Source of the DNA: Octopus vulgaris
Taxonomy: Eukaryota
Length of the DNA stretch: 64,000 nt
Reading direction: 5' to 3'
NCBI GenBank assembly: GCA_951406725.2
Contig: OX597821.1
Span: forward strand, 23,684,001-23,748,000
Shown: positions 18,699 through 51,524 of the stretch, piece by piece
How positions within the stretch are numbered: position 1 is the stretch's first letter
Layout: each line of letters begins with the position of its first letter
Notes under the pieces: model-generated
Databases searched by the model: none
The model's input: the letters and a program-made list of their open reading frames with translations, nothing else
What the model was told of the DNA's origin: nothing
Made by a program: the position numbers and the translations under genes

Positions 18699-19918
18699 CA
18701 GAGTGTCCCAAAAATATGTATACACACTTTAGCAGCTGATAACTCAATTGATGCTTTTCCTTTCCAGATGAAACCCATTGGAACTAATGATGGTAGTCAG
18801 ACTAAGCTTTGAACAAAGTAAATTGAAGCTAAAATGCTACTGGAAGTGTGAAAACGCAGTTGAAGTGCAAAGACAGTTTAGGGGGGAGTTTCCAACAGAT
18901 CCATTAACGCGACTTACCATCACTCGAATTAGAGACAAGTTTGAAGCCGATGGAACTATTCAGAATGTCCACAAGAAGCGTTCTGGAAGACCACGAACAT
19001 CGACAACCCCAGCAAAGCAGGAAGGATTGCTGGGAACGGATCACCAAAGCCCAAGAAAATTTCTGGGACAAGTGAGTCGTGAGGTAGGTGTTCCAAAATC
19101 GTCTGTCCAACGCATTTTGAAGCGTTGTCAATGGAAAAGTAACGTTCCAAGATTAGTCCAAGCTATTAATGTCGAAGATTCAAACCGAAGAGTGCAGTAT
19201 TGCGAGTGATACTTGGCACGATGCGTAGAAGATGCACACTTTTCAACAAAGATTGTGTGGAGTGATGAGGCCACATTCAAATTAAATGGTTCAATTAACC
19301 AGCGCAATAGCACCTACTGGGGACCTGAGAATCCGCATGTTAATTTACCAGGAGTTACAGTGTGGTGTGGCTTATCATCAAGAGAATTTATTGGACCATT
19401 CTTTTTTGGCGCTACTGTGACTGGTCCCGTTTACTTGAACTTGCTGCAACAGTCTGCCATGCCAAGCATTAGAGAAGACTTTGAAGACGAGAAGTTTTAT
19501 TTTCAGCAAGATGGAGCACCCCCACACTACCATCGCGATGTTAGATCCTTCCTTGATCAGATCTTATCAAACAGGTGGATCGGACGAAGGGGTTTCATTG
19601 AATACCCTCCACTTTCACCAGACCTCACACCACTAGACTTTTTTTATGGGGATACCTAAAAGACAAAGTCTACGCTATGAAACCTGCAACACTCGCTGAT
19701 TTGAGAGCATCCATTGAACGAGAATGCACACAAATACCTAACGAATTGTTTCGTGATGTTTGCGATTCCATTTCTTCGCGTTGACAGCAGGGACCGGACC
19801 AGGACGGACGTCTGTCTGAAAACAGGCGTTGACAAAACAATAAAATAATGTCTGTAAATTCTATTAAATTTTGAAAATTTAATAAATACCTACTTTACAA
19901 TTATTTAAAGTGTGTATA
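18699..19918 (+). mobile_element. Tc1/mariner superfamily DD41D (rosa/VS-type) transposon
   Basis: TA plus left TIR cagagtgtcccaaaaatatgtatacacacttta; partial right TIR taaagtgtgtata at 19906-19918. Confidence 0.88.
18787..19832 (+). pseudogene. DD41D transposase pseudogene (DUF4817-like HTH plus DDD)
   Basis: ORFs 18778-19209 and 19213-19659 are in frame, split by TGA; motifs [31 protein letters not shown] with 41 residues between the 2nd and 3rd D; frameshift before WGYLKDKVY. Confidence 0.92.
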
Positions 19919-20756: not shown

Positions 20757-21990
20757 TCGTATTTAGGGATGTTCTTTGGATTGTCCTTAGAAAGGTAGAT
20801 GTTCCCGGAAAGATGCTCAATGTCATCATTTCTTTCCATCAAGGGATGATGGCTTCTGTCAGATATAGCGGGAAAGTGTTTGTTTCATTCTCAGTCTCTA
20901 ATGAGACATAACAAGGCTGTGTTCTTGCACCGCTCTTATCTGCTTTGTATTTCTCTGTCATGTTGGAAACAGCGTTCGAGGATGTTAAAGAAGGAGTAAA
21001 GCTTGAGTACAGAACTGGTGGTGGCAAAAACTAAGACTTTGGTGCAAGCAGTTCGATATTTGCTCTTCTCAGACGATTGTGCGCTTGTAGCACACACTCT
21101 TGAAGACACAGAACGGATTCTAAACAACTTCTCGCGTGCATCGGAAGCTTTTGGTCTGACCATCAGCATCAAGAAAACAGTGTTTGTCCATCAGCCCATT
21201 CGTGGCTATCTTCCCGCTGTTGCCCCTACTGTATATGTTGATGGGAAAGCATTAAAAACTGTTTCCTTCTTCATTTATCTTAGTTCCATTGTGTCCAATG
21301 TTGCTAAGATGGATAAAGAAATTCAGTCCAGGATCGGAAAGGCCAGCTCCGCTTTCGGTAAGCTTTATCACAGGCTTTGGAACAACCATGATGTATCGTT
21401 GAAGGTGAAAATAGATGTACATAAGTCGGTGGTCTTGACAACATTGCTTTATGGTATTGAATTTTGGACTCTGTGCCAAAAACACATAAACTAGCTTGAC
21501 GCTTTTCATACGCGATGCTTGCGTACTATCTCCAACATAAAACTGAGTGACCTAAGAAAATACAAAACATCAGGTATTGAAGCCATTCTCATAAAAATAC
21601 AGCTTAGATGGTCGGATAATCTCTGAGGGATGAGTGATATCAGAATCCGAGCAACTTCTTTTAGGTCAATTTCCAATAGGCAGGTCAGTTGGATGACCAC
21701 TCTTCCTCTTCAGAGACAAACTAAAAGACAATCTGAAGCGATGCAACATTCTTCTTTTCTTCCTGGGAAAGCAAAGCACCAGAACGCAGGACCTGGTGCC
21801 AATCCCGCTTCTTCTCAGTTCAAAGACTTGAGCAAAGCCGATTCCAGCATCGGGACTAACTTGATGCAAGCATGAAGGCACGCTGGCAAAACGCTGCTCG
21901 TCCAAATGGAAACCTTACCTGTCATTGTAGTTTTGTGGCACGAAGCAAAGCAGGCCCTGTCGTCCACTCAAGAAAACACATAGTAAATGA
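20757..21990 (+). pseudogene. RTE-clade LINE reverse transcriptase, 5'-truncated and decayed
   Basis: QGCVLAPLL, LLFSDDCAL, FGLTISIKKT, RIGKASSAFGKL, LLYGIEFWTL; C-terminal Cys/His relic. Confidence 0.92.
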
Positions 21991-24229: not shown

Positions 24230-24545
24230 TACTCTTTACTCTTTTACTTGTTTCAGTCATTTGACTGTGGCCATGGTGGAGCACCGCCTTTAATTGAGCA
24301 ACTCGACCCCGGGACTTATTCTTTTGTAAGCCCAGTACTTATTCTATCGGTCTCTTTTGCCGAACCGCTAAGTAACGGGGATATAAACACACCAGCATCG
24401 GTTGTCAAGCAATGCTAGAGGGACAAACACAGACACACAAACACACAAACGCATATATATACATACATACATACATACATATATACGACGGGCTTCTTTC
24501 AGTTTCCGTCTACCAAATCCACTCACAAGGCTTTGGTCGGCCCGA
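24230..24545 (-). mobile_element. SINE family A, head missing
   Basis: Tail and body only; the adjacent part of the Tigger DDE domain is also missing. Confidence 0.88.
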
Positions 24546-25327
24546 AGAGATACCTTGGGTATGTTCTTAAGAACTCGGAGGTTCAGTTCGTGATATACAA
24601 GCAGCGGTTTTGGCGTGCTATCGCCTGCACAGTTGCCTCCCACCATTAAGATCAAACGATAGCCAGGAATTATTTTCTCTTCTCTGGATATGAAAGAACG
24701 ATCTGATAATTTCTTCCAGTAAGTACCGGTCTCATCAACATTGAATCTTTGTTCGGGTAGAAATCCATTATCTTCAATAATCTTCGCTGATGTAGCAGGA
24801 AATTCCGCTGCAGCAACATCGTCAGCTGATGCCCTTACACCTAGTTTTTCGAGAGAGTGCAAATTCTGCCGCTGCTTAAACCTCATAAACCAGCCCTGAT
24901 TTTCATTAAATTCTACGTCTTTCTCATCTCTTTACTCTTTTACTCTTTTACTTGTTTCAGTCATTTGACTGCGGCCATGCCGGAGCACCGCCTTTAGTCG
25001 AGCAACTCAACCCCGGGACTTATTCATTGTAAGCCCAATACTTATTCTATCGGTCTCTTTTGCCGAACCGCTAAGTAACGGGGACATAAACACACCAGCA
25101 TCGGTTGTCAAGCAATGCTAGGGGGACAAACACAGACACACAAACACACACACGCATATATATATATATATATATATATAGATATACGACGGGCTTCTTT
25201 CAGTTTCCATCTACCAAATCCACTCACAAGGCTTTGGTCGGCCCGAGGCTATAGTAGAAGACACTTGCCCAAGGTGCCATGCAGTGGGACTGAACCCGGA
25301 ACCATGTGGTTGGTAAACAAGCTACTT

Positions 25328-27477
25328 TATTTCAACAATTTTGCCACTAGGGCAGTACACAGAGTAGCTACGGGCTGGACAAAGACATTAATGGATGATG
25401 GTGGTGGTGGATGAAGATGGTGATGGGAGAAGTCAAAAAGCGCCCGCCGACTTCCGCTTCTCTAAGACATTGTTCTTTTTTTTAATAAGTTCAATTTTCT
25501 TTTTTCTTTAGTTTCAATAAATCGACATGAGGTTGCAAACCTCTTACACGAAGGAGGCACTAAAACCTCTTACAAAGTTCTTTTTTTCATTTCTTTTGCC
25601 ACAAGGGCAGTATATGAATTCACAAAAATTCTCCCTGTCAGGTCCCCGAAGCAAATTGTCTTGCCGCCTGCAGACAACTCTGCGACGACAAGTCGAGGCC
25701 TGCAAAGAGAAAAGTAAAATGTTTCCTCTCAAAGGTCTTTGTAACCCTTGACAAAATGTTTTCCGTTACTACCTCCGCAGCTACCCACGGAGGCCATAAC
25801 GGACTCCTTGAGCTGACCGTGTCCTTGCGTTCTCGGTCACCCAAGCCATTCAAAAACTTTTCTACCTTCCCTCCCTTGTGGTGAAGGAGGAGAAACAACT
25901 CCTCTTCACAGGAAGGGACCTCACACTGATCCGTCAGTGGCACACTTTCCACTGACAGAGCACTGTCCGCGGGTGGCACACGTCCCACCCGCGGCTCCGT
26001 CGGCGACACAGAAACGTCAGCCGTCCGACCTCTTTTTCTTTTTTTTTCCTCTTTTTTTTAGAGGCTGCTAGCCCGGGGGGCTCCTTCGGCAGACACGGGG
26101 GTCGCTATCCTCCTCCTCCGTCTGTACGTTCTTTGGTGAGCAACCATTGTTGCTCACCTGTCTTTTTCTTTTCGTGGAGGCAACATCCTCCACGACTTCC
26201 ACCGTCTCCCCCTCCAATGAGGGGGCAGCGGGCACCTTTTCCTTTTCATGCTCCGGGGCAGCACCACGGCCACCGGGACACTTCCTCTTGATATGTCCAG
26301 GCTCCAGGCACAGGTGACACTTGGGGGGCGTCCCTCAAGCATCAACCGGATACCTGTACCCGGCCATCCTCAAAAAGTCCGGTAAAACCAGACTTTTGGC
26401 TGACTGGGTCCATAGGGTCAAAACAGCTCTTGACCCCTCCCAATCAGCCGCAGGCTGTACTTTTACGTTCAGTAGCTTGGAACTGCTACCATCCAAGCCC
26501 GGGCGGATAGAGTCCTCTATTCACTCGGGCTCAACGCCTGGTGGTAAGCCGCAGATCCAAGCTCTCAACAATTTTTCTCCCTTGTAATTTGGGAGAAACA
26601 ATATTTGTTTGCCCTCAATAGGCTGGCTTGCAAATTCGCAAGCTGCTTTAGGAGAGTCAAATAGCAACCAAACCGTTGCGTATTTAACTCCCCGTGCGAT
26701 ATATTTAACGGCTGGCATGTAGTCTGCCAGCTCGTTAACAATAGTGGCCTTTGGAAAGACTGCTATGGTGTCGAGCGACTTCGAATATGTCCTCAGCACC
26801 ACGATCTTTTCCTCGAGCTCATTCAAATATTTTTTGGGAGGTGTCAAATCCCACACAGTGAATTTCTTTGCCATAACGTAAGATTTAAAAACAGTTCAAA
26901 ATGTGATAAAATAAAATAAGACACAGAAAGGAGAATGAAAAATACAACAGAAGGGAAGAAATAAAATTAGAAATAGCAGTTCAAAAAAAGTTCTTTTTTA
27001 AAAAAATAAATGATAGACGGAGAAAGAGAGTTCAAATCCAGACAAAGGAATTAATTTTTTTTTTTTTTTTTGTTTTCACTTTTTTCGGCCAAAAAATTGT
27101 ATTCCAGGCCAAATGCACAGTTGGTAAAACACCTTGATAAAATAATCCTTGGTACTCCTTGGTAATTCCCGTGGATAACACAAAGACAATTTCAAAAACA
27201 ATTTTTGCAGACGGACTACGCCGCTTTAAAAATACAATTCTCACTGCAAAGTGAGTCTTTACACTCGACAACAGGCAGAAAAATTATATCTGGAGCAAAG
27301 TGGAGTTTATTATCTGCTAAAAAATATTAAATGCTAAAAAACATTAAATGCAAGTAATAGACTTCACTAAGCTCCCAAAAATACAAAACGCCTACCTGTA
27401 GTCGAGTCAAAAGTTCAACAATTCACGTTAAAACGTGACATTTGCCGGAGCGAAAAAAACGCGTCCGTTCGGTGAGA
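25328..27477 (-). mobile_element. ORF1-only non-LTR retroelement (L1/Tx1-like, HAL1-like) with 9-bp TSD
   Basis: TSD aagctactt at 25319-25327 and 27478-27486; ~600-bp 5' UTR, gag-like ORF, 3' end gaaataaa; no EN or RT motifs seen. Confidence 0.8.
25638..26874 (-). pseudogene. Gag-like ORF1 with RRM-like region and CCHC zinc knuckle
   Basis: MAKKFTVWDL...RAWICGLPPGVEPE*; CHLCLEPGHIKRKC (CX2CX4HX4C) at 26319-26278; basic low-complexity linker; stops and frameshifts present. Confidence 0.78.
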
Positions 27478-28076
27478 AAGCTACTTACCACACAGCCACT
27501 CCTGCGCCTATCTGGATATTTCTTTTTCAAATCTTCAAACAAAGACAATGCTTTCTCCTGAATTATTTCCAGACTACAATTTGCTTGCTGACGATTCTGC
27601 CTTTCAACCCAAAGGGCAAGAAGCTGCTCGATCTCTTCGTAAATTCGTCCTCTTAATTGTTGATGATGGTGTTTTTCATCTCTGGAGCATCATCTTTCAC
27701 ATGTGCCATAATCCCATTTCTATCATGCGCAGTCGTTGACACAGTTGTTATGGCTCATCCCAAACGATTGACCGATGGCTACACTCTTTTCACCCTTTTC
27801 ATATAGTTCTATCCACTTTATCTTCCAACAATATGGCTTAACGCTTACCGTTTTCACTCAGATTCTTCTTTTGAGCCATGGGGCTAAATTATAAATCAGA
27901 AAAATAATTGTACAAAATTCTATAGTACAGTAAACAGATTTGGAAAGCTCGCGGCTGGAGCACTAATGCCACCTATCGGAAAACATGTGAACTAGTACAC
28001 TTGTTCCGATTTGTATTACCATTAACCTGTAACTTTTAATGTTTTTGTTTTTAAATGGATTTTAATTGTTTATAAT

Positions 28077-28487
28077 ACTCTTTTACTCTTTACTCTTTTA
28101 CTTGTTTCAATCATTTGACTGCGGCCATGCTGGAGCACCGCCTTTAGTCGAGCAACTCGACCCCGGGACTTATTCTTTTGTAAGCCCAGTACTTATTCTA
28201 TCGGTCTCTTTTGCCGAACCGCTAAGTAACGGGGACATAAACACACCAGCATCGGTTGTCAAGCAATGCTAGGGGGACAAACACAGACGCACAAACACAC
28301 ATACATACATATATATACATATACTACAGGCTTCTTTCAGTTTCCGTCTACCAAATCCACTCACAAGGCATTGGTCAGCCCGAGACTATAGTAGAAGACA
28401 CTTGCCCAAGGTGCCACGCAGTGGGACTGAACCCGGAATCATGTGGTTGGTAAACAAGCTACTTACCACACAGCCACTCCTGCGCCT
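28077..28487 (-). mobile_element. SINE family A, full length
   Basis: Matches consensus. Confidence 0.92.
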
Positions 28488-28755
28488 GTATTTTAACATT
28501 AATGTTAATATGCTATACAGTTTATATGCTTCTATTGCATTTTCATTTATTTCCCGGACACGAATACGAACGTAATCAATCGGTTCAACCTGGAACTAAC
28601 AGTACAGTATAGTATGAACGTTATTGCTGTTATGCCAGGCGACGTAAAGTAATACTGTATTTGATATTTATTTAATATTTTAGAAAGACCGACGTATCTT
28701 CGGAAATGACCTAAGTCGACACGACTTAATCAGAGGTATTTGTGTGCGCGCGCGA

Positions 28756-30009: not shown

Positions 30010-30880
30010 GTATTTAGAACACTTACAAATTCCTCAAATATATTTAGCTTGCTGACAGGTGCCACAAGTACATTTAGTGCACCCACAAATACTACAAGCA
30101 TATTTAGAGCAGTCCACGAGTATATTTAGAGCATTCACAAGTACTACAATCATAGAGCAGTCACAGGTACCATAAACATATTTAGATCAGTCACAGGTAC
30201 CTCAAGCACATTTAGAGCAGTCGCAGGTACTATAAACATATTTAGAGCAGTCGCAAGACGAAAGGAAAGGTCTATAGAAGTTGTGTGAGAGCTGCAATAC
30301 TGTATGGGAGTGAGACATGGTGTTTGGGGATGGGAGAGATGGCAATTTTGAGAAGGACTGAGAGAGCAATGGTGAGAGAAATGTGTGGCATATGGCTGTT
30401 TGATAAGAGGAGGACTGAGGACTTGATGGGGATGCTGGGGTCGGAGGAATTTAGAACAATCATACGTACCACAAACACATTAAGAGCAGTCACAAGTACC
30501 ACAAACACATTAAGAGCAGTCACAAGTACCACAAACACATTAAGAGCAGTTACAGGTACCACAAACACATTTAGAGCAGTCACAGGTCCCACAAACACAT
30601 TAAGAGCAGTCACAAGTACCACAAACACATTAAGAGCAGTTAAAGGTACCACAAACATATTTAGAGCAGTCACAAGTACCACAAACACATTTAGAGCAGT
30701 CACAAGTACCACAAACACATTTAGAGCAGTCACAGGTGCCACTAATACACTTAGTACAGTCAAAGGTACCACAAACATATTTAGAGCAGTCACAAGTGCC
30801 GCAAGCTTATTCAGAGCAGTCACAAATTCTGTAAACTTATTTAGCGCGTTCACTGGAAACACAGTTACGTTTAGAGCTGT
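30010..30880. repeat. 30-bp minisatellite (cacaaacacatttagagcagtcacaagtac)n, about 20 units
   Basis: Direct reading; most homogeneous at 30470-30800. Confidence 0.93.
30257..30449 (+). pseudogene. RTE RT C-terminal fragment embedded in the minisatellite
   Basis: KGKVYRSCVRAAILYGSETW...LRRTERAMVREMCG. Confidence 0.85.

Positions 30881-49834: not shown

Positions 49835-49846
<12 letters not shown>
49557..49846. repeat. ~290-bp near-perfect palindrome with 1-nt spacer
   Basis: Centre caaatcaa-a-ttgatttg at 49702; arms match with few mismatches. Confidence 0.95.
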
Positions 49847-49902
<56 letters not shown>

Positions 49903-49905
<3 letters not shown>

Positions 49906-51524
49906 CACTTCTTCCAACCACCCACCCTGTATAATTAAAACCACAGTCCAAGCCGTCTCTGACAGATTAACTAAATTATCCTCTAACAGGAATATATTCA
50001 ATGATTACGCGCATCACTATAACCAGGCCCTCTTTAGTGCTGGGTACCCCAAAAAATATCTTTCGGCAAAAAATCCTATCAAGAACCGCCAAGAACACCC
50101 GTCAACTATAAACTCCCCTTGTAAACGAACTAAGAATTCCAAAACTATTAATTTGAAATTAAACGAAATTAGACTAAATAGTGGTAATAACAACACAGTT
50201 TCAACTAATACCAATTCTAATTTAATTTCTAACATGACTAGGAAACAAACGGAAAGAAATCGAACCAATAGAATATTAGTAAATGAAAACCCTTCCGACG
50301 AAAGTAACACTGATTGCATCAGAGGACATAGGGGTAGAAACAGTAGATTACGTAATTATATATGGTATAACATACCATATAACATAGCGGTTAAGGGTAA
50401 ATTATGCAAAACAATATTCTCTATAATTTCCAATAACTTCCCACCCACCCATAAGTATAGGAGCATCTTCTCAAACAAAACGATTAGGATATCCTACTCA
50501 ACTCTACCTAACATGAGCTGCCTCATAACTAAACACAATAATATTAAAATTAGAACAGCTAGATTAGGAGCAAATAATAATGATCACTCGAACCCCCAAC
50601 AATCCAGGTGTTAACATTAGTAGCAGCCAAACTCATAACATTAACCTTAACCATTGTAATAGTCAATATAATAACAATAATCAGGACAGTAACAGCAACA
50701 CCGAAACTGCTAGTAACAACACCCATCACAATAACAGAGGCAACGTTATACCCAATAACTGTATAACTAACGAAGATAATACTACTACTACGTTTAATAT
50801 GATAGCTCAATCCACATTGAATAATAATAATCGTGAACTTAACTATACCAATTGTAATAGCTATACAACTAGCATTAATAATAATAGCAACGCAGAAGAC
50901 AGTTCCTATATCAGGACTAGAAGCGGAAGAAATATAGACCAAAACAACTTAAATAGCACCAATAGTGATAATAACAGTAACAACGGCGAAATTACTAGCA
51001 GAACTTCCATCCACCACAATAGCAACCCCAACAGTAACTATACCGAAATTACCTGCCCAAGGAGTAATAGCAGACGGCCGGGAAGTGCAAATCACGGATG
51101 CAACTGTGCAGATGCTTCAGCCTGTCCTTTACGCTGAAAATGTTTAGCTAAAAACGTAATTTATTCCTGTGAAGTAAGTACCCAATTAAACATACTTACC
51201 CACATTGGTTGCTCATCGGTCTGGAAATCCAGATTCTATAACCACCGATCATCCTTTAGGCTCAGACACAAAGCTAGTAGCACCTCTTTATCTAGAAAAA
51301 TTTGGGAGCTTAAAGACAATAATATAGATTTTAACCTTAGGTGGTCCATTATCGGATCAGCTGCGCCTTATAAAAATAATAGAACAGGGTGCCAACTGTG
51401 TTGCGTAGAACTCCTGAATATCATTAAATTCAAAGAGAAAAGCAAATTAATTAATAAAAGATCTGAATTTAGGCCATCTTGTATGCATAAATTAACTAAA
51501 ACCTTCAAATATTACAAGGCTTAG
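49903..51524 (+). pseudogene. Penelope-like element (Neptune-type) RT thumb plus GIY-YIG endonuclease, 5'-truncated
   Basis: SNHPP, IWYNIPYN...FPPTHKYRSIF...ISYSTLPNM, CNC..CPL..KC linker, VIY...HIG, RFYNHRSSF, CQLC..E...NKRSE...C.H; stop at 51522-24. Confidence 0.9.

Follow-up and report, generated by a model that had tools for sequence, protein, structure and literature searches.

A decayed ORF1-only retroelement copy in the head of an octopus SINE, probably from a repeated LINE-derived family

The insertion and its host SINE

The window, a 64-kb stretch of Octopus vulgaris DNA, holds one copy of a retroelement at 25328..27477 on the minus strand, and no second copy was found there. The element measures 2150 bp between two copies of AAGCTACTT (25319-25327 and 27478-27486). 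An intact SINE neighbour at ~28060-28490 has AAGCTACTT only once, at an empty site, which identifies the duplicates as a true target-site duplication (TSD). The 5′ TSD (27478..27486, minus strand) reads AAGTAGCTT on the element strand; the first AA of the 3′ TSD (25319..25327, minus strand) completes the element's AATAAA (25326-25331), so that the two share 2 nt. The element was inserted as a whole unit with its TSD and has neither LTRs nor terminal inverted repeats, nor a poly(A) tract at its 3′ end.

When the flanks are rejoined they make up a single copy, in the same orientation as the element, of a SINE that accounts for ~16% of the window. Its 5′ piece (27478..27509, minus strand) carries an A-box-like TGGCTGTGTGG at 27488-27498, and its 3′ piece (24931..25327, minus strand; 92% identity to the intact neighbour) carries a B-box-like GGTTCAGTCCC at 25286-25296, followed by a (TA)n/(TG)n tract and a tail. 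The boxes were called by likeness to the A and B box consensus. The insertion point lies between them, in a spacer that is 32 nt long in the intact neighbour, a tRNA-like spacing. ARAGORN found 0 tRNA genes in the SINE head, and no tRNA occurs among the 8 Rfam matches at E ≤ 5, which fall under gathering scores and mostly lie on microsatellite. A first-pass annotation had described a 2150-bp insert bounded by these duplicates, an AATAAA overlapping the TSD and a position between the A and B boxes; the coordinates and the empty site in the neighbour bear out this description. The first bases of the element, TCTCACC (27470-27477), resemble the GCTTACC/GTTTACC that follows the target in empty SINE copies, and SINE contigs consequently align from 27471. 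The host possibly belongs to the octopus SINEs that Ohshima and Okada described in 1994 (cited in PMC4758252).

Upstream of the SINE lies a pogo/Tigger transposase remnant with an HTH_Tnp_Tc5 domain (27510..27689, minus strand; PF03221, E 4.5e-06). The same frame resumes downstream of the SINE at 24546..24930 on the minus strand, with the reading ...KKKYPD / EKDVEFNENQGWFMRFK...; this piece has no Pfam match and was tentatively assigned to the transposase by its motif. The region 24230-27689 is thus a three-level nest, in which the transposase is split by the SINE and the SINE by the ORF1 element. A possible 4-bp TSD, AGAT, accompanies the SINE within the transposase, and a head-less second SINE copy (24230-24545) interrupts the transposase once more. 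The order of events would have been Tigger, SINE, ORF1 element and then decay. Elsewhere in the window, two in-frame pieces at 18772-19659 resemble a Tc1/mariner transposase.

The leader, ORF1 and a second open frame

The element begins with a 603-bp leader (26875..27477, minus strand) that becomes AT-rich towards the ATG, contains no long ORF or Pfam match and is covered in all 4 sequencing runs in which depth was read. The long 5′ UTR of the earlier description is thus present, and we infer that it carries the promoter. The ORF1 core follows at 26068..26874 on the minus strand, with its ATG at 26874, two predicted RRM domains, a CCHC knuckle (26278-26319) and an acidic/basic linker. In the window copy the reading frame is broken: codons 118 and 180 are TGA, codon 269 is TAG, and the frame changes within an A run ahead of a second open frame at 26057-25638. 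At 26521, 99% of the depth in run X1 carries another base, which makes the first stop private to the window copy; the second stop sits within two closely spaced frame changes near 26322-26344. Of the single gag-like ORF with a CCHC knuckle that had been proposed, the knuckle therefore stands and the single open frame does not.

The second frame (25638..26057, minus strand) comprises 139 codons and is tracked by one 80%-alike contig (record 26) to just past its stop. It is possibly the C-terminal part of ORF1 after the frame change, as several ORF1 relatives have a C-terminal domain, or else 3′ UTR. None of 507 candidates matched this frame at E ≤ 1, the Atlas gave no usable match, and a profile built on the C-terminal parts of 8 relatives matched none of the three frames downstream of the knuckle. 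The earlier figure of ~300 bp for the 3′ region holds if the second frame belongs to ORF1; otherwise the region measures ~700-740 bp. In the RRM region, 9 of the 16 listed differences are silent, against an expected fraction of 0.23-0.35 (p 0.004-0.06), whereas the second frame has 2 of 10 and no silent-site bias. The excess of silent changes over the RRM domains speaks modestly for selection acting on ORF1 among members of the family.

ORF1 is predicted to be of type I

A single close homologue of ORF1 emerged from 647 candidates: the Octopus sinensis protein XP_029652367, of 281 aa, with 60% identity over 99% of the query. This one protein has three RefSeq accessions, and a Phe replaces the first cysteine of its knuckle. 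A profile search at E ≤ 0.001 extended the set to 60 proteins, of which some match by the knuckle alone. Twenty relatives were looked up, and the 11 with a species name were all octopods (Octopus or Argonauta). A model of XP_029652367 predicted from 34 sequences, with a pLDDT of 80, places two RRM folds over residues 16-185, ahead of the knuckle. Foldseek matched the model to tandem-RRM proteins (best E 1.2e-05), and VIA Z scores on it were 9.0 for residues 15-102 and 8.3 for residues 101-183. ORF1 had no match to Transposase_22 (PF02994). In the terms of PMC4120745, the predicted fold makes ORF1 a type I protein with the order RRM-RRM-CCHC.

This architecture fits the Tx1 group (PMC5203782). 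A type I ORF1 also occurs in I, Jockey, R1, Tad1, L2 and CR1 elements (PMC4120745), so it is not diagnostic of Tx1; we regard a Tx1 origin of the element as likely. ZCCHC3-like Atlas clusters scored 0.89-0.90 for ORF1, which we treat as a lead only.

Several further observations concern the relatives themselves. Distant ORF1 relatives (P0003, P0062-P0064, P0007, P0013 and P0014) lie on Logan contigs of 1703-1930 bp, and the P0003 cluster has four members of 1849-1930 bp; these could be other ORF1-only units, or transcripts, of ~1.9 kb. The O. sinensis gene model XP_029639579 (P0009) matches the first 46 positions of the ORF1 profile and contains an integrase core (rve), and is probably a chimeric model across another ORF1 copy. 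A C-terminal motif, Y..LK..FP.DVG, is common to P0008, P0023, P0027, P0036, P0049, P0050, P0054 and P0061; it has no Pfam match, and the region is possibly an undescribed ORF1 domain.

The insert encodes no reverse transcriptase or endonuclease

All six frames of the insert, with stops read as X, were compared with Pfam at E ≤ 1. The only family recovered was zf-CCHC (E 0.033, below the curated cut-off), with 0 matches to reverse transcriptase (RT) or endonuclease families, as the first-pass annotation had proposed from the lack of such motifs. A search with an alignment (A2) for longer gene models with ORF2 fused to this ORF1 gave 0 of 4891 candidates among proteins of 1508-4305 aa; this and the search with the second frame are weak evidence.

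The protein and metagenome-contig searches yielded no autonomous partner. Metagenome contigs gave 105 pattern matches to the element, none of which was confirmed, and 8 matches to the 19-nt motif of its 3′ end (see below) were taken as chance since they had nothing else in common with the insert. Within the window, fragments at 21000-21494, 30246-30400 and 49841-51137 resemble parts of an RTE-type ORF2 and a Penelope-like frame, and the tail motif is absent from all three. In O. vulgaris as a whole, 80 L1-Tx1 families are reported, of which 13 have been active recently, with a mean insertion of ~5.4 kb (PMC13282606, Table 1), so candidate partners exist.

The 3′ end is doubled

The terminal block of the element (25328..25571, minus strand) ends in the motif TACTGCCCTAGTGGCAAAA (25339-25357) and AATAAA. 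Upstream of it on the element strand, an internal copy of the motif (25594-25612), an A-rich run and an 11-mer lie in succession at 25572..25612 on the minus strand. Both copies conform to the 19-nt pattern TACTGCCCT[A/T]GTGGCAAAA and are predicted to fold into a short TGCC/GGCA hairpin. The internal copy lies 25 nt beyond the stop codon of the second frame, and a repeat of this kind arose in 0 of 100 shuffled sequences. The 11-mer, AAGAACTTTGT, matches the present target AAGTAGCTTGT at 8 of 11 positions; the likeness was spotted post hoc, has p ~0.002 by local composition, and is a level that 3 of the 2140 11-mers of the insert reach. The presence of two 3′-end motifs indicates that the tail is probably composite. 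An older ORF1-only unit with its own 3′ end may have acquired 255 bp of 3′ sequence from a relative, after which the two multiplied as a single unit.

The insert belongs to a repeated family

Parts of the insert are present in 20 of 24 listed public runs (10 studies), 8 of these holding a small share, and 5 runs contain at least half of its words. Depth was read in 4 of the 24 runs (X1, X2, X3 and X6) over 30 bins, with six low-depth contigs from each run, taken at their median, as the reference, and all 30 bins of the insert were covered in all 4 runs. At three positions behind the ORF1 core the depth was 25-61x that of the low-depth contigs; it was 67-99x at 26804, 20-46x at 27355 and 11-43x eight bases from the 5′ end. 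The seven chosen positions span 11-99x, and the tail reaches 400-830x. Summed depth is not copy number, and we read these values only as tens of copies, many of which reach the 5′ end.

Towards the tail, the depth at 25339 is 17-24x that at 27355. It declines inwards over five bins in 3 of the 4 runs, with one reversal in X2; in X1 the bins read 69,738, 24,704, 15,564, 7,255 and 3,857, as 5′ truncation would give. The excess fits 5′-truncated copies or a commoner partner with the same tail; spill-over from SINE contigs is possible, and the 3′ bins may read too high because of A-rich and (GAT/GGT)n sequence. A dip at 26024-26104 lies on a repeat skipped by the depth program and was left unused.

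Contigs spanning the region between ORF1 and the tail bear on whether the layout is a property of the family. Two contigs with 0 differences from the window copy, 25454-25656 in X3 and 25508-25656 in X2 (records 9 and 17), cross the internal motif at ~8-9x the low-contig depth, and two diverged contigs, 25587-25891 and 25596-25772, cross the stop at 25638. Such multi-copy bridges argue against a one-off deletion of ORF2. Among the 32 pieces listed (132,156 more exist), there is no contig across the whole element, no second full-length copy and no bridge over 25328-25454 or 25891-26149. Record 26 departs from the window copy 11 nt after the stop and continues with 122 unlike letters, as would be expected of a relative that carries a different 3′ region or an ORF2.

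We favour, with a probability of about 0.7, the reading that the insert is a decayed copy of a repeated octopus LINE-derived family that lacks ORF2 at the family level. The half-LINE family in a mollusc that had been suggested from one copy gains support in this way from octopod homologues, from repetition of the whole insert in 4 runs and from the bridged ORF1-to-tail region.

An ordinary autonomous LINE of Tx1/L1 type, of which this or a few copies lost ORF2 by internal deletion or template jump with no lasting ORF1-only family, would accommodate a tail much deeper than the body, the departure of record 26 right after the stop and the stretch 25328-25454 left unbridged among the contigs listed; the L1-Tx1 families of O. 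vulgaris (PMC13282606) would supply the parent. The place where ORF2 would be expected is nevertheless crossed by both the identical and the diverged contigs, no remnant of ORF2 is found in any frame, and a 3′ motif follows 25 nt past the stop. We consider this history unlikely.

The composite tail could alternatively record two insertions into the same target at this locus, a 1.9-kb ORF1-only element running to the internal motif and a 5′-truncated 255-bp piece of a relative. The A-rich run and target-like 11-mer behind the internal motif are what such a tandem might leave, and tandem insertions around a TSD are known for the target-specific SINEU-3 (PMC4494074). The 11-mer match is post hoc, however, and the junction lies inside the multi-copy contigs of 100% identity, from which it follows that the join predates the locus and spread as a unit. 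A local tandem thus has very little probability.

Least credible is that a host gene domesticated from an ORF1, like ZCCHC3 or L1TD1, gave rise to the insert as a processed retrocopy: the three RefSeq accessions of the single O. sinensis protein, the ZCCHC3-like Atlas clusters and the termination of the insert at AATAAA would suit it, but depth of tens of copies over the whole insert with many diverged variants, a knuckle Phe in the O. sinensis homologue of the kind seen in a decaying copy, and the many distant ORF1-like relatives in octopods speak for a selfish family.

Does the element target the SINE head?

The position of the element invites the idea that it targets the SINE head, an idea we hold to be doubtful. 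A random insertion would fall in the A-B spacer with a chance of ~1% in the window, and at any SINE position with one of 16%; the site was picked post hoc. The degenerate target-like 11-mer after the inner motif also counts towards targeting. A further hint comes from a joint that leads from 26421 to SINE position 27479, found in one contig each of X2 and X3 among the 15 joints listed (191 more exist), which looks like a 5′-truncated copy at the same target. This joint lies at a AAACAGCT/AAACAAGCT microhomology, its shorter side is 21 letters long, in a class that is often false, and it is absent for X1 and X6 among the listed joints; it could also be a deletion allele of the window locus. As the query kept ~33 bp of SINE on each side, empty SINE copies dominate the 15 joints listed (191 more) and the 24 loose ends listed (1578 more). 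In the window, 17 of 23 matches to the SINE head run uninterrupted across the site, while 2 are the split copy and 4 fall short of it.

A wider proposal, to which we lend only tentative credence, is that a Tx1-derived ORF1-only family and its autonomous partner specifically target the A-B spacer of the commonest octopus SINE, with composites arising from tandem insertions. If so, the element would parasitise a parasite, disabling SINE promoters and enjoying a renewable, high-copy safe harbour.

A possible route of mobilisation

Coating of element RNA by ORF1p and its handover to the ORF2p of a partner are modelled here on established LINE biology. The leader would drive transcription of the element RNA, which its own ORF1p would coat before recruiting the partner's ORF2p. 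Copying would likely occur in trans: a full LINE, probably one from the Tx1/L1 group, would supply endonuclease and RT, and its machinery would recognise the 3′ motif. We speculate that a nick at 5′-AAGCTACTT/ACC-3′ frees a TT end that primes on the terminal AATAAA of the RNA, in a target-primed reverse transcription that would yield a 7-9-bp duplication. Pairing of the TT end with the terminal AA of the RNA would explain why the TSD overlaps AATAAA.

Comparison with known systems

We found no literature on an octopus or molluscan ORF1-only LINE, and the accessible portions of PMC11203168 and PMC4758252 hold nothing on the octopus element; Repbase or the O. vulgaris repeat library may already contain the family. 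Four octopod proteins (XP_029652367, A0A0L8FKL1, CAI9742213 and GAB1605864) have the same RRM-RRM-CCHC core and are annotated as uncharacterised genes; ORF1-only elements of this kind may lie behind several "uncharacterised" octopus gene models.

Target preference is documented for a number of Tx1 elements: Tx1L inserts into Tx1D, Keno into U2, Kibi and Koshi into microsatellites, and Tx1-Mar, with SINEU, into Mariner-N4_AMi (PMC4494074). The octopus element resembles these in its type I-like ORF1 and in its insertion into another repeat, and non-autonomous passengers there inherit the target of their partner. Unlike the octopus element, which has no ORF2 and offers hints only, they possess RT, endonuclease and a tabulated preference. 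Among the targets in the accessible portion of PMC4494074 no SINE head was found, nor did we find literature on a retroelement that targets a SINE internal promoter. If targeting of the SINE head were true, the element would be a sequence-specific retroelement with such a promoter as its target; without it, the element would be a useful repeat-library entry and little beyond.

HAL1 is an L1 derivative of several origins in mammals (PMC5753468). Like HAL1, the octopus element is a non-autonomous LINE derivative that consists of a leader, ORF1 only and a 3′ end, is flanked by a TSD and would presumably be mobilised in trans. Unlike HAL1, it has a type I ORF1 (two RRMs and CCHC) with no Transposase_22 match, lacks a poly(A) tract and resides in a cephalopod. 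HAL1 in the strict sense has a type II ORF1, with coiled coil, RRM, CTD and Transposase_22, and this was not found here. The label "HAL1-like", under which the insert was first described, is therefore apt for its way of life and inapt for its ORF1, which is RRM-RRM-CCHC instead of the mammalian Transposase_22 type.

A close parallel is with bipartite non-autonomous LINEs that have retained ORF1, namely HeT-A (Jockey), Ag-Sponge (CR1) and HAL1 (L1), for which multimerisation of ORF1p with the proteins of a partner has been proposed (PMC5786205). The octopus element shares their layout: it has a predicted RNA-binding protein of ORF1 type, no ORF2, and a unit insertion with a TSD. It differs in its likely Tx1 derivation, its molluscan host and its doubled 3′-end motif, none of which is named in the portion of PMC5786205 available to us. 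A cephalopod family of this kind would support the notion that ORF1p is worth keeping for a passenger element, and with its type I ORF1 it would add an independent origin beyond the L1, Jockey and CR1 cases of PMC5786205.
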